Shown here: piece after piece, positions 703 to 19,301 of the stretch
Layout of the letters: every line of letters begins with the position of its first letter
Numbering within the stretch: the first letter of the stretch is position 1
NCBI GenBank assembly: GCA_046757245.1
Contig: JBHHXX010000001.1
Location: forward strand, 9,369 to 73,368
Reading direction: 5' to 3'
DNA from: Candidatus Geothermarchaeales archaeon
GTDB lineage: Archaea > Thermoproteota > Nitrososphaeria > Geothermarchaeales > JAUWBL01
Length of the DNA stretch: 64,000 nucleotides
The notes under the pieces: generated by a model
What the model was told of the DNA's origin: nothing
Database searches by the model: none
Seen by the model: the letters and a program-made list of their open reading frames with translations, nothing else
Program-made: the position numbers and the translations under genes

Positions 703-1719
703 TCAGGGTTTCCTTCTTCTGGCTGTGATAATCACTGTTACCGAGATGACTACTATTATTACTATAAATCCTATCTGATAGCTATAGTCTGAGATGATGG
801 ATGGAGCGGCGGGCGTCACCAAGAGAGCTGGATCGATCGTAATCGTTCTTAATATGCTTTGCGGGGTACGCGCTTCCACGATTTTAAAGTAGATTATCTT
901 CGTTCCATCGGGGCTCCAAGCCGGAGCCAAATCTTCCTCTTCGTTTGTCGTCAGCTGAATCTCGTTTCCTCCTTCTGCGTCCATGACCCAGATTTCATAG
1001 TTCTCGGTCCGATCCGATGCAAAGGCTATTTTAGATCCATCGGGGCTCCATGCCGGATGATGATCGTCCTTTTCACTTGCTGTTAATCGTCTCTGATTGC
1101 CGCCGTTTGAATCCATAACCCAGATGTCGAGGTTGCCCTTTCGATCAGAAGTGAACGCTATCCTCTCCCCGTCGGGGCTCCAGTCTGGCTGATAATCATT
1201 TTTTGGGTCTGTAGTCAGTTGAACCTCGTTTCCACCGTTTGAGTCCATAACCCATATATCCCAGTTACCGGTCCGATCTGAAGCGTATGCTATTTTTTTC
1301 CCATCGGGGCTCCAAGCCGGGTCCATATCCCATCCCGGATCTGTTGTTAATTGGACCTTGTTTCCACCGTTTGAGTCCATAACCCAGATGTCAAAGTTGC
1401 CCGAGCGGTGTGATGTGAAGGCTATCTTCCTTCCGTCAGGGCGCCATGTAGGCCATGAATCCATTGATTTATGTGATGTCAGTTGAACTTGGTTGCCTCC
1501 ATCCGGATCCATAACCCAGATATCCAGAGTGCGATCCCTGTCGGATACATAGGCTATTTTTTCTCCATCGGGGCTCCAAGCCGGGTACTGATCTGATGGA
1601 GAGGGTGTCGTTTTTACTGTTTTTGTGTTTGCTCCTATGAGGGCTGATAATAACAACAGGGTTAAGGCTACGGAAATCTTATTTTTCGCGGGACTTTCAT
1701 CGTCTTTTAAAAGACACAC
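703..1719 (-). CDS. TolB-like / PD40 beta-propeller repeat surface protein with an N-terminal signal/TM and a C-terminal TM anchor
   Basis: Five exact-period 44-aa repeats (PAWSPDGxKIAFxSDRxGNxDIWVMDSNGGNxVQLT) plus one partial blade. Hydrophobic N-terminus. C-terminal IGFIVIIVVISVTVIITARRRKP anchor. Confidence 0.8.
   Translation of the reverse strand: MCLLKDDESPAKNKISVALTLLLLSALIGANTKTVKTTPSPSDQYPAWSPDGEKIAYVSDRDRTLDIWVMDPDGGNQVQLTSHKSMDSWPTWRPDGRKIAFTSHRSGNFDIWVMDSNGGNKVQLTTDPGWDMDPAWSPDGKKIAYASDRTGNWDIWVMDSNGGNEVQLTTDPKNDYQPDWSPDGERIAFTSDRKGNLDIWVMDSNGGNQRRLTASEKDDHHPAWSPDGSKIAFASDRTENYEIWVMDAEGGNEIQLTTNEEEDLAPAWSPDGTKIIYFKIVEARTPQSILRTITIDPALLVTPAAPSIISDYSYQIGFIVIIVVISVTVIITARRRKP
925..1584 (-). 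repeat. Five tandem 132-nt coding repeats (PD40 blades) inside the TolB-like gene
   Basis: Repeat units start at residues 46, 90, 134, 178 and 222 of the 338-aa product, an exact 44-codon period. Confidence 0.8.
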
Positions 1720-1812
1720 ATCCTATAATACGGTCGAGGAGTCTTATATGGTTGAAGGAGAGGCGATTTCAGCTTCCCTAAGTGAAATTTTTATGTGTAT
1801 GTTTATTTCTTA

Positions 1813-1881
1813 ACTTTTATAAAAAATATGGTCCTATCTCTTTACCAAAAAAATATATTATTTACTTTTATAAAAAAATAT
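1813..1881. promoter_or_regulatory. Duplicated palindromic TATA-like element ACTTTTATAAAAAATAT (copies at 1813-1829 and 1864-1881) in a very AT-rich divergent intergenic region
   Basis: Two near-identical 17/18-mers lie 51 nt apart, between the minus-strand start at 1719 and the plus-strand ATG at 1945. The TTTTATAAAA core resembles an archaeal TATA box. Confidence 0.3.
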
Positions 1882-1944
1882 TTACAAAATATTTATATTA
1901 TAGGATGTCAAAACCCATTCTTACGAGATGGAGGCGTGAGAGAG

Positions 1945-2109
1945 ATGACCTCTGAGGTCGAGAACGGGGTTACCGTAGACTGTCTCGACTGTACGAAATC
2001 GGTGCGGATGGAGTGGCTGCCTAACCATTACTCAAAGTCAAAGTGCTTCCTCAGCCTCTTGGATTTCTTGAGGGAGCACAGCGGTCATAAACTCCGTGTT
2101 TTGGAGTAA
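1945..2109 (+). CDS. Small hypothetical Cys/His-containing protein (54 aa)
   Basis: This is the internal ATG of ORF 1795..2109, preceded by GGAGGCGTGAG (SD-like). The part of the ORF upstream of 1945 is AT-rich, promoter-like sequence. The CLDC...H...H pattern suggests a small zinc-binding fold. Confidence 0.3.
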   Translation: MTSEVENGVTVDCLDCTKSVRMEWLPNHYSKSKCFLSLLDFLREHSGHKLRVLE

Positions 2110-2191
2110 AGGAAGCCGAGAAACACTTCTTCATAAAAGGTTATCTTATAATAAAAAATTGTATATACCCTGACAGCTCTTTACAGTCCCT

Positions 2192-2392
2192 TTGACTTAT
2201 CATTGTATTATAGTCTTTCCTCGGGGTATATTAGGAGAGATCATGAGGCTGGGAGAAATGGGACATAAGCGATTAGGCGTACCCCCGTACTTGAAGAATC
2301 TGGGGATTCGACTTCAAAACTGGTGTTTGATGCCAAATAAGGAAAGTAAAGTGGAAATGTGGGGAATAGGGATATTGAAGAGAAAAGATTAA
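2192..2392 (+). pseudogene. Relic of the C-terminus of a LivM-type ABC permease
   Basis: CIIVFPRGILGEIMRLGEMGHKRL...LKNLGIRLQN aligns with the last ~45 residues of the LivM paralog at 5590..6705 (CVITFPRGVLGEVMRLREAGYIQL...LKSYIKLRF). No permease body lies upstream. Confidence 0.45.
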
Positions 2393-2442
2393 GAGGACCT
2401 TGAAACTATTTTCGAGAGGGGGATAAGCCGCCAATCCTGAGG

Positions 2443-2850
2443 TTGAGTTCCTTGGAGAGGAAAAAAATTAGAGTTTTGCTCGCGAAGATAGGAGTGGATG
2501 TGCACGACAGGGGGATCAAAATAATAGGTCGAGCCCTAAGGGACGCTGGCATGGAGGTCATATATCTCGGTCCATCGCAACTCCCCACAGACATAGTGAG
2601 GGCGGCCATAGAGGAGGATGTCGACGTCATAGGGATCAGCTCTATGGAAGGGATGCACCTCGTGAGGCTGCCAGAGGTCACCCAGCTCCTCAGGGAAAGG
2701 GGAGTGGAAGACATCCTCGTCGTCGCCGGGGGCATCATACCCGATGAAGACAGATCCACGTTGAAGAAGGCGGGTATAGCAGAGATATTCGGCCCTGGCA
2801 CCCTTCTCCGCGACATCACCAATTTTATCATGAGAAACGTCAGAAAGTGA
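2443..2850 (+). CDS. Methylmalonyl-CoA mutase, small B12-binding subunit
   Basis: Cobalamin-binding DxHxxG motif (GVDVHDRGIKIIGRALRDAGMEVIYLG) and the GISSMEG...VVAGGIIP Rossmann-like pattern typical of the MCM C-terminal domain. Confidence 0.85.
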   Translation: MSSLERKKIRVLLAKIGVDVHDRGIKIIGRALRDAGMEVIYLGPSQLPTDIVRAAIEEDVDVIGISSMEGMHLVRLPEVTQLLRERGVEDILVVAGGIIPDEDRSTLKKAGIAEIFGPGTLLRDITNFIMRNVRK

Positions 2851-2907
2851 TCATACTCAATTCAATCCCAAGAATCGGATGCGGAGGTAATGATTTAATC
2901 ACGGTTA

Positions 2908-3651
2908 CTACAAGGAATACTCTGCCACAACCTGTAGCTCGTAATATGCCGGTCTTATTTTGTGGGGGTGTGAGCTTAGCTCAAAGGGCGCTTTTTCGCC
3001 AACGTTGATCCTATCTGGTTTGGTAAAGGCGAAGGAGCTGCCTACCACCTTGCCCTCGGAGTCATGGTAGGTGCAGACCACCCTCACGTAGTAAGCCTTC
3101 CTCACTCCGTTGTTCTGAACCTCACCCACGATTCTATGGTAGCCCTCTTCATCGACGCTCGCCGTGTGGCTGAGGATGACGAGTCCCTCGAAGGGCTCCT
3201 GCCCGGTTTCCTCATACGTTAGGGTGAGCTCGTAGCTGGCTGGGGCTATTTTATTTGGGTAGGTCGATAGCTTGAAGGGCGATTTTTGACCGGGCCTCAG
3301 AATTCCTATATCGGTGTATTTGCTCATGCTTGACACACCATGTTCGCGATATTCTTCCGCTTCTATTCCAAATTCGGTGAGGTTGATCACTTTTCCCTGA
3401 TCGTCGTAGAAGATGGCCGTTACGGCGACGCGCGCTATGTTGGTTTGGAGGTTGTTCTTCACCTCGCCCACCACCGTGAAGTAGCCGAGGTGGTCGATGT
3501 AGCTAGTGTGACTCAGTATCTCTGGAGGACTCACCTTCTCTGAAGGTATTAACTCAGTTTTCCTCTCGGGTTTGCGGGGAATTGAGGTAGAGATCAAGGC
3601 GACGATGATGGTGAATACGGCAATGATGAGGATGAGTTTCTTCCTGGACAT
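2908..3651 (-). CDS. Membrane-anchored extracytoplasmic protein with two tandem homologous domains (FxLYD-like)
   Basis: N-terminal TM (LILIIAVFTIIVALISTSI). Internal duplication: GYFTVVGEVKNNLQTNIARVAVTAIFYDDQGKVI versus GYHRIVGEVQNNGVRKAYYVRVVCTYHDSEGKVV, each followed by KSPFKLSTYPNKIAPASYEL / KAPFELSSHPHKIRPAYYEL. Confidence 0.6.
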   Translation of the reverse strand: MSRKKLILIIAVFTIIVALISTSIPRKPERKTELIPSEKVSPPEILSHTSYIDHLGYFTVVGEVKNNLQTNIARVAVTAIFYDDQGKVINLTEFGIEAEEYREHGVSSMSKYTDIGILRPGQKSPFKLSTYPNKIAPASYELTLTYEETGQEPFEGLVILSHTASVDEEGYHRIVGEVQNNGVRKAYYVRVVCTYHDSEGKVVGSSFAFTKPDRINVGEKAPFELSSHPHKIRPAYYELQVVAEYSL

Positions 3652-4103
3652 AAAACCCTCAACTATAGTGAATTCTATTATGAACTTCCTGATATTAGTG
3701 GGCGTTCACAACTTTTAAACCGTTTCCCAGCGTTCTCAGACATCCCCCTGTTACCGAAAGCGTTCATAGAGTTGGAAGCTGAGTTGGCTCGGCTTCCAGC
3801 CGTATCTCTATGTAGAGGTCATATGGTGATGGGGGTATGGGTAGTGGTGGATGTTTCCATCCTCGTTAACGAATCTATCTAAAACCTTACGCTATGACCT
3901 TGGAGTGAGTAACGATTTTATTTTACGATTAAACCTCTCAGCGGTCCTCAGTTTGATTTTTCTCTCTTCAGAGGCTCTATGAGGTAGGAGAGAACGGGGT
4001 TGAGGAGGATGAAAACCTTAACAGCAGAGGTGAACAGAGTGCCTAAGTGAACGGAACTGGTTAAAGCAGATTCAACATTTTATAATCGAGAATCTGCCTT
4101 ATC

Positions 4104-4904
4104 ATGGATAGAGGGGCAAAATCCATGGGAGAAACGCTCGGCTTCGAGTGTAAGAGGTGTGGCAATTGCTGTTCGAGCGGTTGGGAGCTCCATGTGGATC
4201 TGTGGATCATTGAAAAATGGATGAGGGAGAGGCGTAGGGATCTCCTATACCACGTGGTCTTTCGTCCACGCTTCCTGCTGCACCCCGAATACTCGAACTA
4301 CGAGCCGAGGTTTATCATCGACAACGGAAACCTCCTATTCGGCGACCATGGGAAGAAGCCCTGTCCATTCTTAATAGGCTCCCCAGGTGCCAAGACATCA
4401 TGTAGGATTTATGAGGACAGACCTCTGGTGTGTAGGGAGTTCCCCCTCAAGAAGGGTGCAGACGGCGAATATCGGGTTAAAACAGACGTCCTCCACGTTT
4501 GTAGGGGGGCAAGGGTTTATTTCGAGAGGCGTGCGCGCCTCGCGGGGAAGAGCTTGAATGAGTACATGCATAGCATACCCAAGGTTGAGTCTCCGCGTGA
4601 AAGCTACGCCATGACCCCTGAGCTTGCCGAGATATTAAGTCAACATTATCGGAGCATGTCAGAGGAGGAGAGAGCCACGGGCTTGATGTTTCCCGAGTTG
4701 AGGGATGAAGATTATGCCGAGAGGGTGTTCAAGCGCCTCGCCAAGATGTATAAGCCCCTAAACTTGAGGGTGCGCGTCACATCGGATCAGGGCTTGGCGA
4801 TATTGGAGGCCTACGGTAGGGACGACATCGGTGGAATGGTGGAGATTATAAACGGCATAACAGCTAGGGCTAAAGACCTATTGGAAAAGCTGCTTAATGA
4901 ATAA
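4104..4904 (+). CDS. YkgJ-family cysteine-cluster (putative Fe-S/Zn) protein
   Basis: CKRCGNCCSSGW motif near the N-terminus plus a later CPFL...CRIYEDRPLVCREFP pattern, characteristic of the UPF0153/YkgJ family. An alternative start exists at the ATG at 4125. Confidence 0.6.
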   Translation: MDRGAKSMGETLGFECKRCGNCCSSGWELHVDLWIIEKWMRERRRDLLYHVVFRPRFLLHPEYSNYEPRFIIDNGNLLFGDHGKKPCPFLIGSPGAKTSCRIYEDRPLVCREFPLKKGADGEYRVKTDVLHVCRGARVYFERRARLAGKSLNEYMHSIPKVESPRESYAMTPELAEILSQHYRSMSEEERATGLMFPELRDEDYAERVFKRLAKMYKPLNLRVRVTSDQGLAILEAYGRDDIGGMVEIINGITARAKDLLEKLLNE

Positions 4905-4913
4905 GGTTCAATA

Positions 4914-4932
4914 TTTTTTCGATAATTGTATC
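4914..4932 (-). promoter_or_regulatory. Copy 1 of the recurrent 19-nt motif (plus strand reads ttttttcgataattgtatc)
   Basis: Its reverse complement, GATACAATTATCGAAAAAA, matches the consensus RGTACAATYATCGAAAAA. It lies 9 nt after the stop of 4104..4904 and 113 nt before ATG 5046. Confidence 0.5.
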
Positions 4933-5045
4933 AAATCGCTTATATCCCAGTTTTCTCCATTTAGATTGAATGGGACCATTAGTATACCGGTAATTTTATA
5001 ACTAGTCTAATCAATATAAAAGATTGGTTTTAACCAAGCGTAGGG

Positions 5046-5585
5046 ATGGGGATGAGCTTTAAGCGTGTATTAGCGTCCTCGATGCTTATCGCTTTAATCT
5101 TTTTATCCTTCTCTTCCTTCGCCTGCGCCCATATGCCGCTGACCGGTGAGAGGTTTGGGGACTACTTGGTGGACACGGCGCCGAAGGTGGTCGTGGTCGG
5201 GGAGGAGGCGAGGCTCCTCCTACACATAGGTAATATCAAGACCGGGAAGACGGCGCCTTCTGACTTGGATATCGTCGTGGAGTTTCTCGACCCGGATACG
5301 GGTGTGGTTCTCGGAAGCTATGAAACCGTGCCTTGGACCGAGGTGCCCGCGGGTAGGGCGATCGCGGGGTTCGAGATCGGCGACTACTTGATGTTGGAGG
5401 GCTATGTCTTCGATAAGCCGGGGCGATACCCGATTCGCGTGAAGATGCTCGGCCAGGAGGCCGAATACGACATCAAGGTTGTTGAGGAGTTCAAGGGGGG
5501 GTTCTCTATTGACCCCATGATAGTAGGTATAATCATAGTTGTCGTGATTGCCCTGATTGCGGTGGTCTATCTCCGGAGGAGGTGA
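5046..5585 (+). CDS. Secreted, C-terminally anchored hypothetical protein (probable Ig-like fold)
   Basis: Signal peptide MGMSFKRVLASSMLIALIFLSFSSFACA. Beta-rich body. C-terminal TM plus RRR (MIVGIIIVVVIALIAVVYLRRR). Confidence 0.6.
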   Translation: MGMSFKRVLASSMLIALIFLSFSSFACAHMPLTGERFGDYLVDTAPKVVVVGEEARLLLHIGNIKTGKTAPSDLDIVVEFLDPDTGVVLGSYETVPWTEVPAGRAIAGFEIGDYLMLEGYVFDKPGRYPIRVKMLGQEAEYDIKVVEEFKGGFSIDPMIVGIIIVVVIALIAVVYLRRR

Positions 5586-5589
5586 GCTG

Positions 5590-6705
5590 GTGGGCCTCTG
5601 GGGAGAAACCATACAGCCGAATAGGAATAGGATCTTGGCTTACGCGGCTGGCATAGCCGTTCTTTTTTTGGCGCCGAGTATACTCCCCACCTATGGTACG
5701 GGGGCGGTCCTGCTGGACGTGCTTTCTCTCACCTTGGTCTACGGGATCGTCGCCATCGCGGTGAACCTCCTCCTCAATTACACGGGCCTCCTATCCTTCG
5801 GCCACGCCCTTTACTTCGGCGCTGGGGTTTACACCGTGGCCTTCTTCTCCTTTAACTTCGGCTTGTTCAACTTCGACTATCTCATGTTGTTGAGCATTGT
5901 AATTTCACTCATCGTGGCGGCGGTCTTCGGCGCCCTATGCGTCAGGCACACAGCGGTATATTTCATGATCCTCACCTTCTCCCTTCAGGAGATCGTGCAC
6001 ATCGTGCTTCACAAGCTCTACTATATCTATATGTATGGGTTACCCAGTATTCCCACGGGTGGGAGTGAGGGCTTACCCATCCTCATACCGGTCTCCCGCA
6101 AGTACGAAACTGTTATATTCGGGATGAAATACACGGGTGAACGCTGGAGGATACTCTTCGTCCACGACGTATTCTATTACTACGTCTTAATCTCGTTTGT
6201 CATCTGCGTCGTAGCGATGTGGATCATAGTGAACTCGCCCCTCGGCAAAACCCTGAGGGCGCTAAAAACAAACCCATTAAGGGCTGAGTTTGTGGGTGTG
6301 CGCGTGAAGCTCCACCGGTGGATCATCTTCGTAATCTCAGGCGTCTTCTCCGGGGTGGCAGGGGCCCTCTGGGCCCCGGTTACCGGCTTCGTTGACCCCC
6401 ACATATTTCACTGGGAGTTTGCGGGTGCCTTCGTGTTTATGGCGGTGCTGGGGGGCTCCCGTGTTTTTCTGGGGCCATTACTAGGCGCGTTTCTCTATGT
6501 CGGCCTTAGACACGTCCTATACGGGTTAACGACCTATTACACGGGCATTTTGGGCATTATTCTCGTAATCTGCGTCATAACTTTCCCTAGGGGTGTGCTC
6601 GGCGAGGTCATGAGGCTTAGGGAGGCCGGCTACATACAGCTCAACACGGTCGCAAACTTAAAGAGCTACATTAAACTGCGCTTCTCAAGGCGAGAGGCTT
6701 CTTAA
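5590..6705 (+). CDS. Orphan LivM-type branched-chain amino acid ABC permease paralog
   Basis: Multi-TM protein with LNYTGLLSFGHALYFGAGVY and LGKTLRALKTNPLRAEFVGV motifs shared with LivM at 8254..9318. The likely start is GTG 5590, directly after GGAGGAGGTGAG, and the stop of 5046..5585 lies inside that SD (translational coupling). The ORF track extends to TTG 5557. Confidence 0.75.
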   Translation: MGLWGETIQPNRNRILAYAAGIAVLFLAPSILPTYGTGAVLLDVLSLTLVYGIVAIAVNLLLNYTGLLSFGHALYFGAGVYTVAFFSFNFGLFNFDYLMLLSIVISLIVAAVFGALCVRHTAVYFMILTFSLQEIVHIVLHKLYYIYMYGLPSIPTGGSEGLPILIPVSRKYETVIFGMKYTGERWRILFVHDVFYYYVLISFVICVVAMWIIVNSPLGKTLRALKTNPLRAEFVGVRVKLHRWIIFVISGVFSGVAGALWAPVTGFVDPHIFHWEFAGAFVFMAVLGGSRVFLGPLLGAFLYVGLRHVLYGLTTYYTGILGIILVICVITFPRGVLGEVMRLREAGYIQLNTVANLKSYIKLRFSRREAS

Positions 6706-6794
6706 CTTAATCATAGCGCTCCTCGTCTATTACAATCATAAGACTCTTAGAAAATTCTGGGTCATAGAAATAGAATAAATAAAAAAATTTGGGG

Positions 6795-7517
6795 TTAGTA
6801 GCCCCGTATCGTCCTCATGACTTCCTCGTCTTCATAGACCTTCTTCGGGTCACCCTCGTATATGATCTCTCCCCGGTCTATGGCGTATAATCTGTTGGCC
6901 AGCTTCTCCGCCAAGGCTATGTTGGACTCAGCCACGAGCATGGATATGCCCATCTCGTGGATTTTCTCTAACCCCCCGGCGAATCTGGCCACTGCGACGG
7001 GGGCGAGTCCCTCCAGCGGCTCATCCAGAAGGAGGATCGATGGATCGAGGGCGAGAGCCCTAGAGACGGCTAACATCTTCTTTTCCCCACCGCTTAGGAA
7101 GAGGCTTCTCCTCGCCAAGAGGGGCTTGAGCTCCGTGAAAGCGTCGAAGATTCTTTTCTCAACCACCTCTCGTGGTGTTTTGCTCTTCGTGTGCCAAAAC
7201 GCAATGTTGAGGTTTTGTTCCACCGTGAGGCCCGGGAATAGGGCTGAGTCCTCGGGGGAGTATCCGAGGCCTAACTTTGCCTTTTCGTCTGGCGAGAGGT
7301 TGACTATATCCTGACCCTTGAACAATATTTTTCCGGACTGTACGGGGTAGAAGCCCATTATGCCCTTGATGGTCGTCGTTTTGCCGGCGCCGTTTCTCCC
7401 CACTAGGCAGACGGTTTCACCCTCCTCGACTTTAAGCGAGACATCTCTCAGGATTTGGACCCCCGATAGAAATACGTTTACGTTCTCGAGTTCGAGTACT
7501 GTGACCATTTCAGACAC
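6795..7517 (-). CDS. livF: Branched-chain amino acid ABC transporter ATP-binding protein LivF
   Basis: Walker A GRNGAGKTT, signature LSGGEKKML, Walker B LLLDEP. It is last in a livK-H-M-G-F order. Confidence 0.85.
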   Translation of the reverse strand: MSEMVTVLELENVNVFLSGVQILRDVSLKVEEGETVCLVGRNGAGKTTTIKGIMGFYPVQSGKILFKGQDIVNLSPDEKAKLGLGYSPEDSALFPGLTVEQNLNIAFWHTKSKTPREVVEKRIFDAFTELKPLLARRSLFLSGGEKKMLAVSRALALDPSILLLDEPLEGLAPVAVARFAGGLEKIHEMGISMLVAESNIALAEKLANRLYAIDRGEIIYEGDPKKVYEDEEVMRTIRGY

Positions 7518-11916: not shown

Positions 11917-12390
11917 TTAAAACTCTTTCCACCCTCTGAACCGTCTTAACACATGACTTGGAACAGGGTTTATATATTCTAGCTCCGCTTGTTTGCAGAG
12001 TTTTTCGAAGTCTGTATCCGTGGTTATGATTGCAGATGCCCCCTCCTGTAGGGCAGCAGCCAAGTATACGCAGTCGTATACATCGTGTTTAAGCTCTTCA
12101 GCTAGCTCGAAGCTCCTCGCTATCGTCTCCCTATGGAGGCAGTAGTACTGGGGTCGATCATACTCTTTTATGAAGTGTTTAACAGCACTCACGCTTTCCT
12201 CTTCACCGCATCCCCATTTCTTGGTCATTACCCAATACGCTCTGATTGGAAGGATGTCCATGATGAGAGGAACATAGGCTCCTCTCAACCCCTCCTCGAC
12301 GACTGGGGCCGCATACCTGTTCCCTGGATGGTCCTCCACTAGAAATATTGCCAGGACGTTGACATCCAAAATCCTTTTCTCGCTAGTCAC
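11917..12390 (-). CDS. vapC: PIN-domain ribonuclease toxin (VapC-like)
   Basis: Acidic PIN residues in ILDVNVL, DCVYLAAAL and ITTDTDFEKL. Overlaps the upstream AbrB-type gene by 8 nt. Confidence 0.75.
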   Translation of the reverse strand: MTSEKRILDVNVLAIFLVEDHPGNRYAAPVVEEGLRGAYVPLIMDILPIRAYWVMTKKWGCGEEESVSAVKHFIKEYDRPQYYCLHRETIARSFELAEELKHDVYDCVYLAAALQEGASAIITTDTDFEKLCKQAELEYINPVPSHVLRRFRGWKEF

Positions 12391-12604
12391 CGAAGGCGGC
12401 CTCCCCAGCGTCTAGGAAGGCTTCCTCACCCCAAACCACCTTCCCCGACCGCACCCTAACCGGCGGTGGGATTATCGGCTTCAGCAACAGCATCCCTCCT
12501 TCTTCTATCAATTCGAATTCCATCCCAGCTTTGAGGCGGAGTCTTTCCCTCTCCTCGGAAGGGATCAAGACTCTGCCCCTCGCATCCATCCTCGTTTTTC
12601 CCAT
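12383..12604 (-). CDS. vapB: AbrB/SpoVT-type antitoxin (VapB-like)
   Basis: MDARGRVLIPSEERERLRLKAGMEFELIEEGGMLLLKPI is a swapped-hairpin AbrB-like DNA-binding motif. Operonic with the PIN gene. Confidence 0.7.
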   Translation of the reverse strand: MGKTRMDARGRVLIPSEERERLRLKAGMEFELIEEGGMLLLKPIIPPPVRVRSGKVVWGEEAFLDAGEAAFGD

Positions 12605-12807
12605 CTTTAATCACCCACAAATTTTAATTATTTTTAACCCACATAAAAATATTAAATAAACCCATTTTACCACGGGGAATAAATCTTGGATATCATCGGT
12701 AAGCATTTAAAAAATACCCGGCTAAAACTCCGTGCTTATTCATTTTGATAAATGTACCAATAAACTTAATAATTTTCTAATCATCATCTAATGCGGGATG
12801 TAAAGCA

Positions 12808-13263
12808 TTGAGCAAAAGGGACTATCGGAAACTTTCCGGGGTGACCGCGGGAATAATACTAGGGATTTTAATCTACCTGGCTCCATGGCTCCTATTCCCC
12901 GTCTGTAAAAAGCCGGTTGAAACCGCAGCTGGCACCTTGATCCCCATGGCGTGCTTCTGGGTCTATCGATACACCTCCGCTATTGGAGTGTTAATCGTGA
13001 TAGTCTCGGCTTTAACCTTAACGGTTAAGGATTTACCCGCAAAACGCGCAATGTTCATTATCTTAACAATACTCGGAGTGTATACGGCGCTTTCACCCAT
13101 GTATACGTTCGGAATCCCCATCGGATTCGGCGCTATGTGTCTAAGCCCTCAGCATATGTGTAGATTAAACACCATGCCAGCGCTCTTTGTTTTGGGAAGT
13201 ATACTAGCTTTTATCGGCCTCGTTGCGACGGTGGTGCAAAAGGAAATAGTGGAAGAGGAATAA
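12808..13263 (+). CDS. Small 4-TM membrane protein with conserved Cys pairs (possibly DUF4418-like)
   Basis: TTG start. Four hydrophobic segments. Cys motifs PVCKK...MACFW and CLSPQHMC. Family assignment is from memory only. Confidence 0.5.
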   Translation: MSKRDYRKLSGVTAGIILGILIYLAPWLLFPVCKKPVETAAGTLIPMACFWVYRYTSAIGVLIVIVSALTLTVKDLPAKRAMFIILTILGVYTALSPMYTFGIPIGFGAMCLSPQHMCRLNTMPALFVLGSILAFIGLVATVVQKEIVEEE

Positions 13264-13505
13264 GCAGATTAATTATCCTCCATCCCCCTTCTTTTTTACG
13301 ATTCATTCTCAGAATGGAGGTCTCCCTCTAGCACCACGTGACACCTACAACGGTAATGGGGAGGAGGCGGGTAAAGAAATGGCGAATAAAATCCTCCTTT
13401 GAGAGGAAATCGATTAGAGAATGCTTATCTCGACGAGGAAGGTGGGGAAATATCATGAAGAATGTAGAAAAGCCTGTGTCTTGTTTCTTCTTGGATTTCG
13501 ACGTA

Positions 13506-14201
13506 TTACTCGGCTGGAAATAGCTTTCCATCCCTTAGGTTATATTTGGTTTTACCGAATTCACCGACCTTGGGATCATGAGTCACCAAGATGATTGTCG
13601 CACCCTCCTCGTTCAACCCCTTAAGGATACCCATCACCTGCATCGCATTATAGGTGTCCAACGTCCCGGTAGGCTCGTCGGCGAGTATTAATTCTGGGTC
13701 GTTCATCAAGGATCTAGCGATGGCAACTCTCTGCTGTTCTCCATAGCTCAGCGTCCTCGAAAAGTGCGACATTCGTTCTTCCAAGCCGACTCGTTTCAAC
13801 AATTCCTTCGCTTTCTCCTCGTCTTCATGGGTGGTTTTGCCCTTGCTGAATAATACGGGCGTTAATACGTTCTCCAGCGCGGTTAGCGTTGGAATCAGGT
13901 TATAGCCTTGAAATATGAAGCCTATGGTCTCCCCCCTCAACTTTGATAGTTGTTCATCGTCCAAATCCATCGTGTTAACTCCACGGATGAGTATTTTTCC
14001 CCGTGTCGGTTTGATTAGGCACCCGATGAGATTGAGCAACGTGGATTTACCGGAGCCAGATGGACCCATTATCGAGATGAGGTCTCCATGATATACGTCT
14101 AGGTCCACGGAGTCAATAGCCTTTGTAATATAATCGCCCAGCTCATAGTACTTGTCTACTCCCCTCATCTCAATTATTTTATACTTCTCTGATTGCCTCA
14201 T
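13506..14201 (-). CDS. MacB/LolD-type ABC transporter ATP-binding protein
   Basis: Walker A GPSGSGKST, signature LSYGEQQRVAIARS, Walker B ILADEPTGTLD. Overlaps the FtsX-type permease gene. Confidence 0.85.
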   Translation of the reverse strand: MRQSEKYKIIEMRGVDKYYELGDYITKAIDSVDLDVYHGDLISIMGPSGSGKSTLLNLIGCLIKPTRGKILIRGVNTMDLDDEQLSKLRGETIGFIFQGYNLIPTLTALENVLTPVLFSKGKTTHEDEEKAKELLKRVGLEERMSHFSRTLSYGEQQRVAIARSLMNDPELILADEPTGTLDTYNAMQVMGILKGLNEEGATIILVTHDPKVGEFGKTKYNLRDGKLFPAE

Positions 14202-15417
14202 CTGGAGTCATCCTCATAAACCTATACGCTGGATAAAGGGAAGAAATCAGCCCAATGGCTATTGAAACAACTATGCACTCCCCGATTAAGAACATCACCT
14301 CTAACAAGGAGGGGTATAGAACGGGCAGCACGGCTTGCATCCTGGGAACGATGAGTTCTACGACCCAAGAGAAGAATATCCCCAACTCAATGCCAATCAA
14401 TCCGCCGATGAAAGATAGAAATACAGCTTCAAAGATTGTCATCTTGAAGACGTCTTGATTCAAGGCTCCAATGGCCTTTATTATGCCAATCTCCCTCCTC
14501 CTCTCAATGTTTGAAAAGAGAAATACGAGCATGATCGCCAAAGCACCTATGCCTAAAACCATTAATAGTAAAGGCCAAACACCCGCCTCCGTGTTTCTCA
14601 AAATTCCCATAAGATACATGGCTACGGTGGGCATTTTAACCGCCTTGACCTCGGGAATTCTATCGATTTCTCTCTTTACCTCATCGATCATGCCCGGCTT
14701 AGTCTTGATCAAAATTGCTGATATATCGTCAACCCTGAATCTCCTTTTGGCGACCTCTTCCTCAAAAATCTCGAATGTCCCGATCTCACCTCTTATGATA
14801 TCCCTCGCCAGGCTCATCGGAATAAATATTGCCGAGTCTATGTAACCTATGCCCGTTGTTTTTAATCGACCCTTGACAACGTAGGGTGTTCCATAGAGGT
14901 TGAACCTGTATCCAGTAAGCGCCAATTCTGGAAGACCGCTCCCGGTGTAAAACGCTGGACCCATCTCACCTACCGTTGCCTCGAGTGGAATGACCAAGGG
15001 ATCTATCATGAAGTCCGTCTCTGGGTCGTAGGCGATGACCTTGATGTTTTCATAGGAGCAGCAGGCTCTTATCGACTTTGGAATCGTCGCAAAATATAGT
15101 TGCGGCGTCGCCTTTTCTACACCTGGAAGGTTTCTTATCTCCTCAAAGACCGAGTAGTTCATGTAGAAGTTAGACGGCATCCCCATTACAAAGCCCAAAT
15201 CGATGCTGGCTTCGTATGGAACGGCGATGATGTCCGCACCTAATGATTCTACACCCAGCCTTAACCCCCTTTTCACGCTGTCAAAATAGAAGGTCGATGT
15301 GTATAGCGAAGCTATAACAATAGTCGTGATGATGATGACGGTGAGGGTATAAAACTTCTTCCTCTTCAAGTGGGTTATAGCATAGGAGTATATGCTTCTC
15401 ATCAATAGGCTAAACAT
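14179..15417 (-). CDS. MacB/FtsX-type ABC transporter permease
   Basis: N-terminal TM, large extracytoplasmic domain, then a C-terminal FtsX-like 3-TM bundle (IGIIKAIGALNQDVFKMTIFEAVFLSFIGGLIG). Confidence 0.8.
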   Translation of the reverse strand: MFSLLMRSIYSYAITHLKRKKFYTLTVIIITTIVIASLYTSTFYFDSVKRGLRLGVESLGADIIAVPYEASIDLGFVMGMPSNFYMNYSVFEEIRNLPGVEKATPQLYFATIPKSIRACCSYENIKVIAYDPETDFMIDPLVIPLEATVGEMGPAFYTGSGLPELALTGYRFNLYGTPYVVKGRLKTTGIGYIDSAIFIPMSLARDIIRGEIGTFEIFEEEVAKRRFRVDDISAILIKTKPGMIDEVKREIDRIPEVKAVKMPTVAMYLMGILRNTEAGVWPLLLMVLGIGALAIMLVFLFSNIERRREIGIIKAIGALNQDVFKMTIFEAVFLSFIGGLIGIELGIFFSWVVELIVPRMQAVLPVLYPSLLEVMFLIGECIVVSIAIGLISSLYPAYRFMRMTPDEAIREV

Positions 15418-15433
15418 CTGGTATTCTAATAAA

Positions 15434-15452
15434 TTTTTTCGATGATTGTACT
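15434..15452 (-). promoter_or_regulatory. Copy 2 of the 19-nt motif (plus strand reads ttttttcgatgattgtact)
   Basis: Its reverse complement is AGTACAATCATCGAAAAAA. It sits in the divergent intergenic region, 16 nt from the ABC permease ATG (15417) and 41 nt from the polyferredoxin ORF start (15494). Confidence 0.55.
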
Positions 15453-15493
15453 AAACAATTTATTAAACACTCTTACAACTTTAAAATTGAAGA

Positions 15494-17065
15494 TTGACAA
15501 TGCACAGTGCCCCCATCCTACAAATTTTCCCCGTCTCAGGAGCCTTCCCGATACCTCTCGAGGTATTAACGATGCAAATATTCCTGGCCGGGGTGGTGGC
15601 TTTCACCTATCTCGCGATCGCCGGATCAAAGATAGAGAGATATCCCAAATATGATCTCCTCGGAATAGGTCTCATCAAGCGGATGGCAAAAAGCCGCACA
15701 TTTCGTCTTGCGGTTCAAATGATTGTGGTTGCCGCGTTCATCTTCACCCTTGCCGCTGGCTTCATCGGGGCTCAGGCCCTCGATAACATCAATGTAGTGA
15801 TAACTTGGTCGTGGTGGTATATGCTTTTATTCATCCTGGCCCTCCTCGTTGGGAGATTCTGGTGTTTTGCTTGCCCTTGGAAATCTATTGTCGACTGGAT
15901 CCTGAATCGATCCTTCCTGAAGGTGAGAAAGGAGAGAGATGTAATGGGCCTTCACAGACCATGGCCCAAAAAGTTAAGGGGTATACACATCCCCCTCATT
16001 TTTTTCTCCGTATTGTTCCTATTTGATCTAGCCTTCATATACGGATGGAAATTTATCCCAATCGCCACCTCGCTACTAGGCGTATTCTTTCTAATTTTTA
16101 CGTTCCTTGGACTATTCTTTTTCAGCAGGGGCAGTTTTTGCAGATACGCCTGCATAGTTGGCTGGGTGCAGGGATCCTTCACAAACCTTTCACCCCTAGA
16201 GCTGAGGGCAAGGGATAAAAAAATATGTGCTGAGGAGTGTAAAAATAAGGACTGCCTCAACGGGAATGACTCAGGGTATGGCTGCCCGACCTATCAACTC
16301 CTCCAAGTGATGGACAACAATTCCCAATGCCTATTGTGCACGGAGTGTGTCAAAACCTGCCCATATGACAACGTCTCCATCAACATAAGACCCTACGGAA
16401 TGGATCTGGTTACGTCGAAGAGGTTCGGAATGAACGACGCCTACTTCGCCATCATACTGCTGGCCTTATCCTTGTTTCACCGCATAAGCATGTCCCCCTC
16501 TTGGCTGGAGTTTGGAGACACGCTCAATCTACCAGGCTTGCCGGGCTCTGGACATGTTTTGGCGTTTATCATCGGGGTATCTGTCTCGGTATCAATCACA
16601 TATGGGGGGCACTATGCATTCTCATCGCTTTCTTTGAAACTATCGGGCAACAACAATGTTAACTTTAGAAGCGTGTTCTCCAACTACGCTTACGCGTTCC
16701 TACCCTTTCCTTTCCTCTACCTCGCGGGCCACTGCTTTGAACACCTCTTCTCCATGGGTGCAGAGATCATTCCCGCCATATCAGATCCCTTCGGCTGGGG
16801 GTGGAACCTGTTTGGGACAGCCGCAGTGCAGCCCCTGCCATTATTCGGGACCCTAGCCTTGAAGTGGATAATAACCCTGTTCATCATAATATCGGTGATA
16901 GCCTGCATATGGGTGGCCTTTCAAAGATCGAGGATAGTATTCGACGATGATAGAGAAGCGTTTAGAAGTTTGATACCGATCGTGGTGTGGATATATGTGC
17001 TCACCATCGTGGGCATCTGGTTTGTGGCACAACCCATGATATGGGTTCCATACCCCGTGGAGTGA
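15494..17065 (+). CDS. Integral-membrane polyferredoxin (NapH/CcoG-like 4Fe-4S protein) with an extra C-terminal multi-TM domain
   Basis: Membrane-embedded CxxCP-type motifs (GRFWCFACPW, SFCRYACIVGW). Two ferredoxin-type clusters (CAEECKNKDC...GCP and CLLCTECVKTCP). At least 10 hydrophobic segments. Alternative in-frame starts at ATG 15500 and ATG 15572. Confidence 0.7.
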   Translation: MTMHSAPILQIFPVSGAFPIPLEVLTMQIFLAGVVAFTYLAIAGSKIERYPKYDLLGIGLIKRMAKSRTFRLAVQMIVVAAFIFTLAAGFIGAQALDNINVVITWSWWYMLLFILALLVGRFWCFACPWKSIVDWILNRSFLKVRKERDVMGLHRPWPKKLRGIHIPLIFFSVLFLFDLAFIYGWKFIPIATSLLGVFFLIFTFLGLFFFSRGSFCRYACIVGWVQGSFTNLSPLELRARDKKICAEECKNKDCLNGNDSGYGCPTYQLLQVMDNNSQCLLCTECVKTCPYDNVSINIRPYGMDLVTSKRFGMNDAYFAIILLALSLFHRISMSPSWLEFGDTLNLPGLPGSGHVLAFIIGVSVSVSITYGGHYAFSSLSLKLSGNNNVNFRSVFSNYAYAFLPFPFLYLAGHCFEHLFSMGAEIIPAISDPFGWGWNLFGTAAVQPLPLFGTLALKWIITLFIIISVIACIWVAFQRSRIVFDDDREAFRSLIPIVVWIYVLTIVGIWFVAQPMIWVPYPVE

Positions 17066-17104
17066 GCTCAAAGAGCTGGATAAACATGGTTGACCTTTTA
17101 ATTT

Positions 17105-17123
17105 AGTACAATTATCGAAAAAG
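17105..17123 (+). promoter_or_regulatory. Copy 3 of the 19-nt motif (agtacaattatcgaaaaag)
   Basis: Lies 27 nt upstream of ATG 17151 and is followed directly by the TATA-like sequence gttttttattttaaa. Confidence 0.55.
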
Positions 17124-17150
17124 TTTTTTATTTTAAACGACAACGTATTT

Positions 17151-17495
17151 ATGAGAGATACCAAACTGGTGATGGAGAGCTACTTGACATACAACATCGA
17201 TCAAATATTGCATGTCCTCACGATTATGCTAGCTGTTTGCTTGTTCGTCGTAGCGGCTATCTCGTATAAGAGGGATGGTAGAAGTAGGCTACTTTTCTTA
17301 TCGGGCGCCTTTTTCATCATGCTCATAAAAGAGAGTATCAACTATCTATATACATTGCAATTCGGATACGTTATGTATGCGTACCTTACGCTTTTCCTTC
17401 AGAACTACCTACCGAGCTGTAAAGCTCCCCTGGATCACATAATAAACCTCTTAATCCTATCCATGTTCTCCCTAGGGATACTGATAAAGAGATAG
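17151..17495 (+). CDS. Small 4-TM membrane protein, first gene of an operon with the wHTH regulator
   Basis: 114 aa with hydrophobic segments (ILHVLTIMLAVCLFVVAAI, LLFLSGAFFIMLI, and others). The stop lies 8 nt before the TTG start of 17504, which has its own GGTGG SD. Confidence 0.55.
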   Translation: MRDTKLVMESYLTYNIDQILHVLTIMLAVCLFVVAAISYKRDGRSRLLFLSGAFFIMLIKESINYLYTLQFGYVMYAYLTLFLQNYLPSCKAPLDHIINLLILSMFSLGILIKR

Positions 17496-17503
17496 GTGGA
17501 AAA

Positions 17504-18064
17504 TTGATTAGACTTGGCTTAAAACCATCGTTCAACGCGGGCAATCTAGACTGCTTGTGTCCAAAGAAGAGGTTAAACTGTTTATGTCCCCGGAGGAAGA
17601 TCTACAAGCTCATCAACCTATTCCCCGGGCTACACTTCAGAGAGATTCAGAGGAAGATCGGCATCGCAACAGGGACCCTCCAGTATCATATAAACTTCCT
17701 CAAAGAAAACGAACTCATCGACTACGAGAGGGACGGCAAGTTCCTGCGGTTCTACCCTGTGGGATTAGAAGGCATTAACAAAGAGGTCTTGGGCATCACG
17801 CGCCAAAAAATCCCTAGGGCAATAATCTTTTACTTGTTAAACCATGGGTGGGCTCGAAACACAGAGCTCTCCAATCATCTGAAACTCTCGCCCTCAACCA
17901 TGTCATGGTACCTAAAGAGGCTGGAGAGCTACGGCATCGTAAAGTCTAATGGGTGCAAGTACACCCTCGATGGAAGAAAGGAAATCATTGAGACACTGCT
18001 AACGTTCCGAGAGAGCTTCCTAGACAAAGTCGTGGACAGATATCTAGACATGTGGGAGATATAG
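17504..18064 (+). CDS. Transcriptional regulator with two winged-helix (ArsR/TrmB-like) domains and an N-terminal CLCP repeat
   Basis: wHTH 1: IYKLINLFPGLHFREIQRKIGIATGTLQYHINFLKENELIDYERDGKFLRFYP. wHTH 2: IIFYLLNHGWARNTELSNHLKLSPSTMSWYLKRLESYGIVKS. TTG start with a GGTGG SD 4 nt upstream. Confidence 0.7.
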   Translation: MIRLGLKPSFNAGNLDCLCPKKRLNCLCPRRKIYKLINLFPGLHFREIQRKIGIATGTLQYHINFLKENELIDYERDGKFLRFYPVGLEGINKEVLGITRQKIPRAIIFYLLNHGWARNTELSNHLKLSPSTMSWYLKRLESYGIVKSNGCKYTLDGRKEIIETLLTFRESFLDKVVDRYLDMWEI

Positions 18065-18194
18065 ATTTTCAGGTAGATATATCAGCGCCTCCATTATCGC
18101 TGATGAACGCCGTCATTCGCAAAGAGTCATGACCACAACGTCTCTCATCGTCAATTGATGTGGCACTTAAACAAAAAGATGAGGAGCGCAGATT

Positions 18195-18593
18195 CTAAAG
18201 GATCGGCCTAACCTTTGGGCGCCTCCTCACGGCTATGATGGATATGATAACAGCTATGATGGCGATGACGATGGCCACATTACTCATGGTTCCCGCGCCT
18301 TTCGCCTCTTCGATGGCCTCCATGGCCGCCCTGGCGTCGGCCACCGCTGTCTTAGCTGTAGCATCCGCTTCCTTCACCGTTGAAGCCACCTCATCCGCTA
18401 ATTTCTTTGCCTCCTCCGCCAATCTCTTCGCTTCCTCGGCTAGTCTCTTTGCTTCCTCGGCTTTCGCGGCTGCGTCCTCCACCGTCACGGGAGTGGCGAG
18501 TGTCAGCATCGGTGTGGCACACATCAATGTGATCAATGGTATCATAGCGATGGCGATATACAGTGTAAAATGATTCTTACGTCTCATTTTCAT
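18195..18593 (-). CDS. Secreted, C-terminally anchored coiled-coil protein
   Basis: Signal/TM region NHFTLYIAIAMIPLITLMCATPMLTLA. Heptad-like repeats AEEAKRLAEEAKRLAEEAKKLADE. C-terminal TM plus RRRPK. Confidence 0.6.
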   Translation of the reverse strand: MKMRRKNHFTLYIAIAMIPLITLMCATPMLTLATPVTVEDAAAKAEEAKRLAEEAKRLAEEAKKLADEVASTVKEADATAKTAVADARAAMEAIEEAKGAGTMSNVAIVIAIIAVIISIIAVRRRPKVRPIL

Positions 18594-18630
18594 CGAAAAA
18601 CAAATTAGAATTCAAAAAGATAAGCGATTC

Positions 18631-18649
18631 GGTACAATCATTGAAAAAT
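18631..18649 (+). promoter_or_regulatory. Copy 4 of the 19-nt motif (ggtacaatcattgaaaaat)
   Basis: Lies 37 nt upstream of the minus-strand start at 18593 and is flanked by atatatac. A half-copy (minus strand tttttcgatga, 18590-18600) overlaps the start codon. Confidence 0.5.
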
Positions 18650-18751
18650 ATATACGTGTTTGCATAGAACCCTAGGCAGTAAGATCTAAGCGAACTATTC
18701 GCCTCTTACTCCTCTCTCTGACTGACGCGTTCTCAGAGTTAACAATGTCCC

Positions 18752-19204
18752 TCACGAGATAACGACGGCGTGGTCCTCGGACAGCGAATCGCACTTCGCA
18801 ACGATCGTCATCGAGGCACAGCACGCTTTGGCGCTGGCACCCGGCACTCGCGTTAAAGTTAACGTACATGTGGCTGTTCCCCCCGGGGGCGGCGTGACCG
18901 ATGGGGGATCGAACTCCCACGTTACCGCCTCCTCTGGACAACGCTCGACCGTGAAATGCACGGGAGCGCTAAACCCCTCTAACGACGTGACCGTGATTTC
19001 GATCGTATAGCTCCCCTCTTCCTTGAGCCTACGGGCGCTGATGAGGTCCTCGCTGACCTCGAGTTTGAAACTGCCTGTTGGTGCCGTTGGTGTCGGGGTT
19101 GGCGTCGGTGCACTTGGCAACGTTAGAAGGTAAATCCCAGCAGCAACTATGACAACGATGATTGATACAGCGATCACGAAGGTTTGGGACCTCTTCACCT
19201 TCAC
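18752..19204 (-). CDS. N-terminally anchored surface protein with a PT-rich linker and Ig-like domain
   Basis: TM region FVIAVSIIVVIVAAGIYLL, linker PSAPTPTPTPTAPT, then a beta-rich domain. GTG start preceded by GGAGGA. Confidence 0.55.
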   Translation of the reverse strand: MKVKRSQTFVIAVSIIVVIVAAGIYLLTLPSAPTPTPTPTAPTGSFKLEVSEDLISARRLKEEGSYTIEITVTSLEGFSAPVHFTVERCPEEAVTWEFDPPSVTPPPGGTATCTLTLTRVPGASAKACCASMTIVAKCDSLSEDHAVVIS

Positions 19205-19260: not shown

Positions 19261-19301
19261 GGTACAATTATCGAAGGAAATTAGTACAATCTTCGAAAAA
19301 T
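19261..19301 (+). promoter_or_regulatory. Copies 5 and 6 of the 19-nt motif, in tandem (ggtacaattatcgaaggaa at 19261-19279; agtacaatcttcgaaaaat at 19283-19301)
   Basis: Two direct copies 22 nt apart, 56-97 nt upstream of the minus-strand start at 19204. Confidence 0.5.

Follow-up and report, generated by a model that had tools for sequence, protein, structure and literature searches.

We analyzed a 64,000-nucleotide (nt) stretch of contig JBHHXX010000001.1 from a Candidatus Geothermarchaeales archaeon, the whole of which we call the window. A gene cluster at 12808–19204 of the window encodes a membrane polyferredoxin, an ATP-binding cassette (ABC) pump, a winged helix-turn-helix (wHTH) regulator and anchored surface proteins. 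What is new here is a lineage-specific regulon assembled from parts of known kinds; in addition, an operator is defined for an archaeal transcription-factor family that has not been studied before. With moderate confidence, we read this lineage-specific regulon as the envelope metal or redox module that was proposed in an initial annotation of the cluster.

A shared operator at the promoters of the cluster

The source assembly, 2.18 Mb in 154 contigs, is 94.5% complete with 8% contamination. Protein identities come from profile searches (Pfam and NCBIfam models) of the open reading frames (ORFs) of the window, and coordinates are positions in the window unless a contig is named. All eight ORFs that the initial annotation had placed between 12808 and 19204 were found there, and the operator-like motif that it had described as shared among them was borne out. 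The core of the motif is GTACAATnnTYGAA (GTACAATNNTYGAA). Five exact copies and one copy with a single mismatch are present in the window, compared with 0.25 expected. The whole 2.18-Mb genome contains six exact copies, five of them in the window and the sixth on contig C6. A position weight matrix built from seven sites scores those sites at 28–37 bits and the next genomic match at 20 bits. The genome total is seven strong sites and one variant ahead of the gene for a DUF4418 membrane protein.

The operator is 14–15 nt long and is positioned directly 5' of the B recognition element (BRE)/TATA box at eight to nine promoters in three loci. All sites adjoin a TATA-like box and lie 20–80 nt from the start codon, except at the gene starting at 5046 (s5046), where the distance is 114 nt. 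In the canonical orientation, TTCGAnnATTGTACC (GTACAATnnTCGAA on the other strand) is followed after 7–9 nt by CTTAT(A/C/T)T and then by the gene. This arrangement is found at s5046, the polyferredoxin, a coiled-coil protein, a PT-linker protein (two tandem copies) and the C6 operon; the operator is inverted at the operon of the regulator and its small membrane partner, the 4TM protein, and at the operon of the FtsX permease and ABC ATPase.

The one-mismatch copy at 4918–4931 (+) is canonical and reads TTCGATAATTGTAT followed by CAAATCGCTTATAT. The copy at 15438–15451 (−) lies in a divergent promoter region, canonical to the polyferredoxin and inverted to FtsX, with a TATA-like box on either side. 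An inverted copy at 17106–17119 (+) precedes the 4TM gene by 31 nt. The copy at 18632–18645 (+) is canonical toward the coiled-coil gene (18593, −), and the two tandem copies at 19262–19275 and 19284–19297 (+) are canonical toward the PT-linker gene (19204, −). The variant ahead of DUF4418, TTTGATAAATGTACC with the TATA-like CTTAATAAT, occupies 12744–12758 (+) in canonical orientation, 50 nt before the gene. It was found with a relaxed pattern whose genome-wide density is 57 matches in 4.35 Mb; from this density, the probability of a chance match at that position is about 0.002. The sixth exact copy, on contig C6, is located 35 nt before an operon that encodes a 198-residue N-anchored protein and a 294-residue NapH-like polyferredoxin. 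Thus the regulon proposed in the initial annotation stands, but its limits of 12808–19204 do not: it also covers the region from the operator at 4918 and s5046 to 6705 and the C6 operon, and DUF4418 is included through an operator variant only. An origin of the motif as a miniature inverted-repeat transposable element or other repeat element was considered and rejected, because the shared stretch is only about 24 nt long and has a fixed spacing to the TATA boxes.

The element is very probably the operator of the regulator family

The regulator gene (17504–18064, +) starts with TTG, 5 nt after a GGTGG ribosome-binding site. The initial annotation described its product as a double-wHTH regulator with cysteine repeats, and the profile searches agree: an HVO_0163-type domain (PF24266, HTH_HVO_0163_N; residues 30–96, 51.7 bits, cut-off 31) is followed by HTH_24 (residues 102–147), and the N-terminal extension contains the repeat CLCP-x9-CLCP. 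This extension is confined to the window regulator, being absent from 17 of 17 aligned homologues. The 55 detectable homologues are all archaeal, about 170–180 residues long and of the same architecture. Within the phylum, the family is present in 43 of 301 genomes, often in multiple copies.

The preceding gene (17151–17495, +) encodes the 4TM protein, a small protein of 114 residues with multiple transmembrane (TM) segments, a conserved core and no Pfam family. In about 22 of 30 loci, a gene for a 4-TM protein of about 130 residues precedes and overlaps the regulator gene; the core of these partners, AY.(K/R)L(R/K)TKRLLL..AF, corresponds to SYKRDGRSRLLFLSGAFF in the window. The family was assembled by gene position beside regulator homologues, and a word-based homology search with the 4TM protein returned only itself. 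Partners in two loci (L022 and L023) match DUF7471 weakly (19.7 and 15.7 bits; cut-off 27); the window protein shows no match.

The element recurs at these operons. Among 20 homologous 4TM and double-wHTH operons, 18 carry TTCGAnnnnTG(T/A)ACC at most 100 nt upstream, ending 6–7 nt before TTTAAAT; the background elsewhere in those loci is 6 matches in 153 kb. The strict pattern of operator plus TATA box was also counted in nine complete genomes; each has a single occurrence, located at the regulator operon. Because of this conservation and single occurrence, the element is very probably the operator of the regulator family. One point weighs against taking the count at face value: 16 of the 18 operator-bearing operons come from one family, the second family being represented by L106 and L107, and the count therefore overstates independence. 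Multi-site regulons of the same operator were searched for in 21 other genomes, including some with closer orthologues of the regulator, where only the autoregulatory site and background matches were found. We infer that the operator is normally a single autoregulatory site that has been multiplied in this genome to about nine promoters.

The initial annotation had argued for co-regulation from the shared motif, and the comparative evidence now connects that motif to the local wHTH family. We consider it highly likely that the genes are co-regulated by the local regulator through predicted binding to the operator. Archaeal activators typically bind just upstream of the BRE/TATA. Since the operator has this position, the regulator probably acts as an activator. 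In complete genomes of a related class (loci L117–L133), the 4-TM partners have a histidine-rich first helix (PHLLHGYHLAHIFLH), and each genome again has a single operator-plus-TATA match; these partners and their regulators are a possible metal-sensing pair.

Could the element be a local promoter variant or small repeat shared by unrelated accessory genes, brought in on a horizontally acquired island and lacking a common pathway? GC content is 0.41–0.50 across roughly 12.5 to 19.5 kb of the window and 0.53–0.59 in the flanks, VapBC genes flank the low-GC stretch, and DUF4418 is unique in the phylum (1 of 301 genomes, this one). The anchored proteins are mutually unrelated, and the neighborhood is not conserved in relatives. 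However, two promoters beyond the island carry the element too, and the genes of these two promoters are the bacterial operon partners of the polyferredoxin. The element is also conserved ahead of regulator orthologues in other families. Furthermore, an operon of Methanoperedens combines a similar pump, an Ig-like (immunoglobulin-like) protein and a polyferredoxin. We regard a mere assembly of unrelated genes as very improbable.

A polyferredoxin family distinct from CcoG and NapH

The polyferredoxin gene (15500–17065, +) encodes a protein of 521 residues (523 if read from 15494) with a NapH-like core and a C-terminal membrane domain. The core has five TM segments, a CxxCP motif, a CxxxC motif and two [4Fe-4S] motifs, and the C-terminal domain is characterized by HxxHNxxH...E...SDPxGWGW. 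The initial annotation had reported two CxxCP-like motifs and an extra C-terminal domain of about six TM segments. The first motif is confirmed (C122/C125/P126), but the second is CxxxC (C214/C218); the extra domain is present, with five TM helices. The remaining invariant cysteines are C243/C247/C252/C262 and C277/C280/C283/C287, eight residues that could hold two [4Fe-4S] clusters. Other conserved residues are M331/W335 and, in the C-terminal domain, H408-x2-H411-N412-x2-H415...E419...S428-D429-P430-x-G-W-G-W435. According to the positive-inside rule, the SDPxGWGW loop would be extracytoplasmic, and the cysteine motifs and the Fe-S domain would be cytoplasmic. Of 48 aligned members, only the window copy has L408, C412 and M419 (TM8) in place of the near-invariant H408, N412 and E419, suggesting a remodeled ligand site in the regulon-specific copy. 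Cysteine and methionine are soft ligands. A 47%-identical paralogue on contig C52 is canonical at these positions.

An AlphaFold model of the protein shows 10 long helices (predicted local distance difference test (pLDDT) 89, predicted template-modeling score 0.89). A Foldseek search of the Protein Data Bank (PDB) with this model found no structural relative (best E 0.26, template-modeling score 0.15). By hhalign, residues 108–289 are homologous to NapH-like neighbors of the family (98.5% probability, E 2e-15). Fer4_5 matches 41 of the 48 members; the window protein is an exception and has no Pfam match, and no Pfam model matches the C-terminal 220 or so residues in any of the 48.

The label CcoG/NapH-like in the initial annotation is therefore only partly retained: the core is NapH-like, but the protein is an orthologue of neither. 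It scores 22.5 bits against the NapH model TIGR02163 (cut-off 213) and 16.7 bits against NF007013 (cut-off 234). The core is homologous to NapH, NosH and MauN; compared with NapH, the 521-residue protein has a CxxxC motif that lacks the proline, an additional N-terminal TM helix and the C-terminal domain. It resembles the bacterial cupric reductases CcoG/FixG (and YccM) in its membrane-face cysteine motif of the Fer4_5 type, in two [4Fe-4S] clusters that are predicted to lie toward the cytoplasm and in genomic ties to copper proteins. CcoG/FixG, however, carries an Ig-like periplasmic FixG_C domain, in place of which the 521-residue protein has the five-TM HxxHNxxH/SDPxGWGW domain, and the ccoNOQP/ccoHIS context is missing. 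Neither the CcoG/FixG models nor FixG_C match the window protein or any of the 48 members. We conclude that the 521-residue proteins form a family that is distinct from CcoG and NapH and is widespread.

Protein searches recover 532 homologues, which are about 35% identical across some 90% of the length, and a scan of species-representative genomes detects more than 351 carriers, mostly bacteria (Planctomycetota, Nannocystaceae, Anaerolineae and others). Archaeal carriers are few: Methanoperedens and Nitrososphaerales in the genome scan, Hydrothermarchaeaceae and Thaumarchaeota from protein search and contig look-ups. Among relatives of the window genome, the distribution is patchy (5 of 24 genera). 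The partner genes and the operator were searched for beside the relatives' copies and the C52 paralogue, and none were found. The conserved neighborhood that the initial annotation had asked for is thus missing in close relatives, where the polyferredoxin occurs in those five genera, its partners are absent and DUF4418 is limited to the window genome.

Bacterial operon partners recur as members of the regulon

We examined the neighborhoods of 71 polyferredoxin loci across bacteria and archaea, to which the following counts refer. In 14/71 loci, a homologue of the NapH-like protein of the C6 operon is encoded 1.5–2.8 kb upstream on the same strand. The C6 protein itself (294 residues, two Fer4_5 matches and two 4Fe-4S motifs) is typically NapH-like. 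Directly upstream of the polyferredoxin, in about 10 loci, is the gene for an anchored protein whose mature N-terminus reads HH(V/I)LG.P.YS, and in Planctomycetota a protein of this type is fused to a NapH-like protein. The product of s5046 (5046–5585, +) belongs to the same family (BLASTP E 2e-5, same architecture). It consists of a signal peptide, an Ig/filamin-like beta-sandwich and a C-terminal TM anchor, and its N-terminal histidine (H29), the first residue past the predicted signal-peptide cleavage site, is invariant in the family. In a structure model with pLDDT 87.5, the sandwich lies between the signal helix and the C-terminal TM segment. In bacteria, these three proteins (the 521-residue, NapH-like and N-terminal-His types) are operon partners or fusions. 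Here their genes are scattered but share the operator, which gives a second argument, independent of the motif, for a functional unit.

The gene downstream of s5046 (5557–6705, +) encodes an orphan LivM-like permease (BPD_transp_2), and the pairing recurs on contig C80 (L149). There, at 857–6129, NikR is divergent from an operon that encodes a P1B ATPase, a LivM-like permease, an s5046 paralogue (52% identity) and a second LivM-like permease. From this layout, the unit of an N-terminal-His anchored protein and an orphan BPD_transp_2 permease recurs and is tied to metal homeostasis. The P1B ATPase scores above the cut-off of TIGR01511, but its assignment as a copper pump was rejected: it has CPC with a lysine and DMG, lacks YN..P and M..SS and is of the Zn/Cd type.

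Fusions and other neighbors of the polyferredoxin point largely to copper. Family members carry N-terminal fusions to NosL, YHS and HMBD, and six cupredoxin-polyferredoxin fusions have a CuA motif. COX2-like cupredoxins with a CuA motif flank the gene in 28/71 loci, as a small protein upstream, a cupredoxin-cytochrome c fusion downstream, or both. PCYCGC proteins are nearby in 15/71 loci, a multi-cluster ferredoxin in 15/71, a molybdoenzyme with a twin-arginine translocation (TAT) signal in 14/71, DUF1573 Ig-like anchored proteins in 7/71, TlpA-like thioredoxins in 4/71 and DUF411 in 1/71. In Anaerolineae and other bacteria (loci L056–L104), a recurrent operon encodes a PCYCGC lipoprotein, a small CuA-motif cupredoxin, the polyferredoxin of 500 residues and a cupredoxin/cytochrome c fusion, sometimes with a DUF1573 Ig protein or a TlpA-like thioredoxin added. 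Its composition suggests a module, so far undescribed, for copper-protein maturation or electron transfer.

Among the archaeal loci, that of Hydrothermarchaeaceae has TlpA-like, DsbD_TM/CcdA and thioredoxin genes as neighbors, and in Thaumarchaeota NicO and NikR are close to the polyferredoxin. MacB-type genes recur directly beside it in Methanoperedens only, in two metagenome-assembled genomes. In one of these (L153), a co-directional operon encodes an Lrp-TRASH regulator, an ABC ATPase, a CARDB-like Ig protein, an MacB_PCD/FtsX permease, a 456-residue unidentified protein and the polyferredoxin. Lrp-TRASH regulators adjoin both Methanoperedens copies and the C52 paralogue. The co-occurrence of pump and polyferredoxin that the initial annotation had asked about holds in this operon, which also includes an Ig-like protein, but across bacteria and archaea it is limited to 3–4/71 loci.

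Some of these neighbors raise the question whether the genes form a chain for respiration or extracellular electron transfer. The two polyferredoxins would then be a quinol dehydrogenase comparable to NapGH, passing electrons to a terminal reductase outside the cytoplasm, with the anchored proteins as electron carriers or scaffolds. The core is indeed homologous to NapH-like proteins; nap-like operons that combine the family with a TAT-signal molybdopterin oxidoreductase, a NapH-like protein and a NapF/G-like multi-cluster ferredoxin account for 14–15/71 loci, and cupredoxin-cytochrome c fusions are downstream in many Anaerolineae loci. In contrast to those bacterial loci, neither this regulon nor the cluster has partners of the NapA/NapG type. 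The regulon includes no molybdoenzyme, cytochrome or cupredoxin, a search of the genome for cupredoxins was negative, and the anchored proteins lack redox-cofactor motifs. Moreover, the architecture of a pump plus a regulator better suits homeostasis or stress than core respiration, and relatives lack this accessory, low-GC island of genes. A respiratory chain is thus rather improbable.

The pump and the surface proteins

Divergent from the polyferredoxin are the genes of an ABC ATPase of the MacB/LolD/FtsE type (13506–14201, −; ABC_tran 1.9e-34, best models MacB, LolD and FtsE) and an FtsX-family permease (14179–15417, −; FtsX 1.3e-18), whose start may be Met6 at 15402. The permease has TM segments at residues 25–43, 283–301, about 323–357 and about 360–392, with an outside loop of about 240 residues after TM1. 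This is the topology of MacB, and the MacB/FtsX-type exporter of the initial annotation is accordingly upheld. The pump shares with the type VII systems MacB, LolCDE and FtsEX the type of ATPase, the FtsX domain and the arrangement of TM1, large outside loop and three further TM segments. It differs from MacB in that the loop has no match to MacB_PCD (PF12704), a domain that is present in the Methanoperedens counterpart, and in its pairing with DUF4418. Archaea lack the membrane-fusion and outer-membrane partners of MacB pumps.

The DUF4418 gene (12808–13263, +) encodes the membrane protein in which the initial annotation had noted paired cysteines: it has four cysteines in two pairs and matches PF14387 with 67.7 bits (cut-off 27) over model positions 2–116 of 117. 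A tblastn search of plasmids with DUF4418 gave no match. In Bifidobacterium longum, a DUF4418 gene is likewise adjacent to, and co-regulated with, that of an ABC permease (PMC7701253).

Two further anchored proteins are encoded downstream of the regulator, both without family matches. One (18195–18593, −) is an Ala/Glu/Lys coiled-coil protein bounded at both ends by TM segments, in which three tandem 21-nt repeats (18389–18451) encode the heptad-like repeats AEEAKRL. The other (18752–19204, −) is an N-anchored PT-linker protein, PT150, with a cysteine-containing, beta-rich domain. The anchored proteins were also compared with one another as possible paralogues and proved to be unrelated.

Which metal the regulon may handle

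Taken together, the genes of the regulon suggest that it probably serves a metal or redox function of the cell envelope. The initial annotation had put forward electron transfer to, or detoxification at, the cell surface as the function of the module, and such a role may apply. For the polyferredoxin family as a whole, copper is the best-supported candidate. From its genomic association with copper proteins, the 521-residue protein is a candidate for Cu(II) reductase activity or copper binding. Copper specifically as the metal of the regulon is a closer call, a possibility that we put just short of even.

Several observations weigh against copper, or against the module as a whole. A cupredoxin or CuA protein was searched for in this genome and none was detected. 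Both loci of Cu(I)-type CopA lack the operator. The s5046 paralogue lies beside the Zn/Cd-type P1B-2 ATPase and NikR, not beside a copper pump, and the C52 polyferredoxin paralogue adjoins a ZIP transporter; because of these two settings, copper is kept as a candidate metal of the regulon. A Foldseek search with the s5046 model returned generic Ig/MG/filamin domains only and no match to a known copper chaperone. Other neighbors of the family are TlpA-like, CcdA and thioredoxin genes or TAT-signal molybdoenzymes, which point toward thiol-redox or respiratory roles. Finally, MacB and DUF4418 are not conserved partners of the polyferredoxin, as the counts given above indicate.

The two Cu(I)-type CopA genes (CPC, YN4P, MxxSS) are on contigs C54 (1452–3687) and C104 (294–3358), each with small YHS/TRASH-like chaperone ORFs, and one of them has a small upstream regulator with a TRASH-like cysteine motif. 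On contig C52 (L017), positions 523–6939 encode ZIP, a CopR-like Lrp-TRASH regulator, DUF5676, a ParA/CbiA-type ATPase, the polyferredoxin paralogue and a C-anchored Temptin_C/TSP3 protein with CxxCH.

A thiol-redox role is a serious rival to a metal function. In that case the system would handle thiols and disulfides at the envelope: the polyferredoxins would reduce cysteine-rich proteins of the DUF4418, PT-linker and PCYCGC types, and the CLCP repeats would serve the regulator as a redox switch for oxidative or disulfide stress. Consistent with this, TlpA/AhpC-like thioredoxins adjoin the family in at least four loci, the Hydrothermarchaeaceae locus has the TlpA-like, DsbD_TM/CcdA and thioredoxin neighbors described above, and the polyferredoxin has two invariant cysteine pairs at the membrane face. 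DUF4418 and PT150 are rich in cysteine, and the regulator has four N-terminal cysteines. By contrast, the NosL, YHS, HMBD and cupredoxin fusions and the TRASH regulators are specifically metal-related, and the invariant N-terminal histidine of s5046 together with the histidine motif of the polyferredoxin C-terminal domain suggests metal ligation. We therefore judge a purely thiol-disulfide system unlikely. The thiol and metal readings overlap, because copper-protein maturation itself includes the reduction of thiols at CuA and Sco sites.

A putative mechanism

If the regulon is an envelope metal or redox module, the regulator would bind the operator, probably together with its membrane partner (17151–17495) and through its N-terminal extension of four cysteines. 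Three groups of proteins would then be produced. The first consists of the two polyferredoxins of the NapH/CcoG superfamily, the 521-residue type and the 294-residue C6 protein, with clusters predicted to face the cytoplasm. The second comprises the anchored surface proteins: s5046, the PT-linker protein, the coiled-coil protein and the 198-residue C6 protein. The third is the MacB-type pump with DUF4418. The recipient of reducing power may be a redox-active metal, with copper as the leading candidate, or the cysteine and histidine sites of surface proteins that bind it; the pump could then remove the product from the cell surface by extraction or expulsion.

By analogy, the system would work most like a CcoG-type reductase combined with a NapH-type polyferredoxin, a MacB-type pump and a cysteine-bearing regulator reminiscent of CopR or CopY. 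Like the copper regulators CopR/CopT (archaeal, Lrp-TRASH) and CopY (bacterial), the regulator is a winged-helix DNA-binding protein with a short cysteine-rich appendage, here CxC-x9-CxC, and has a putative role in controlling metal-handling genes. The cysteine motif of CopY is CxCx4CxC. The window regulator differs in its HVO_0163-type tandem wHTH, in the N-terminal position of the cysteine motif and in its coupling to a 4-TM protein. The s5046 protein and its bacterial relatives resemble extracytoplasmic copper proteins of the YcnI/CopC/PmoD type in an invariant histidine that predicted signal-peptide cleavage would expose, and in their beta-sandwich, C-terminal TM anchor and membrane partner gene; neither Pfam nor Foldseek gave a DUF1775 or CopC match, in sequence or fold, for s5046. 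A literature search on DUF4418, HVO_0163, PCYCGC and the combination of polyferredoxin and cupredoxin found no functional study.

A wider reading, to which we give only tentative credence, holds two things at once. The HVO_0163-type tandem wHTH and the 4-TM protein would be an unrecognized, widespread archaeal membrane-coupled signaling pair (operator TTCGAnnnnTGwACC, 6 nt before the TATA box), turned in this genome into a multi-promoter, metal-responsive regulon through the Cys4 extension. The 521-residue family would be a new membrane Fe-S metalloreductase or copper conduit, made of the NapH-like core and a channel-like domain with a histidine motif, that services extracytoplasmic copper sites (CuA cupredoxins and N-terminal-His proteins) in many bacterial phyla and some archaea.

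To our knowledge, no membrane cupric reductase is known from archaea, and the 521-residue protein would, if this reading is true, be the first. The sole known archaeal Cu(II) reductase is a cytosolic CopZ fusion, and the Cu(II) reduction carried out by CcoG serves cuproenzyme assembly and tolerance (review PMC7558416). Cu(II) reduction and the hand-over to CuA-type sites outside the cytoplasm are poorly understood in bacteria and essentially unexplored in archaea, where MacB-type pumps and DUF4418 would become connected to this chemistry. The polyferredoxins are a widespread membrane Fe-S family with a confidently predicted fold that has no solved relative, whose fusions and neighbors indicate extracytoplasmic copper-protein maturation or electron supply. 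The operator would offer a testable site for a common archaeal transcription-factor family that has no characterized member, and a natural case of a single autoregulatory site expanding to a regulon.

Flanking features

The upstream edge of the low-GC stretch (11917–12604, −) is occupied by a VapC-type PIN toxin (PF01850) and an overlapping AbrB/MazE-type antitoxin. A YkgJ-like CxxCxxCC protein (PF03692, putative Zn/Fe-chelating) is encoded at 4104–4904 (+), its gene terminating 9–14 nt ahead of the operator copy at 4918.

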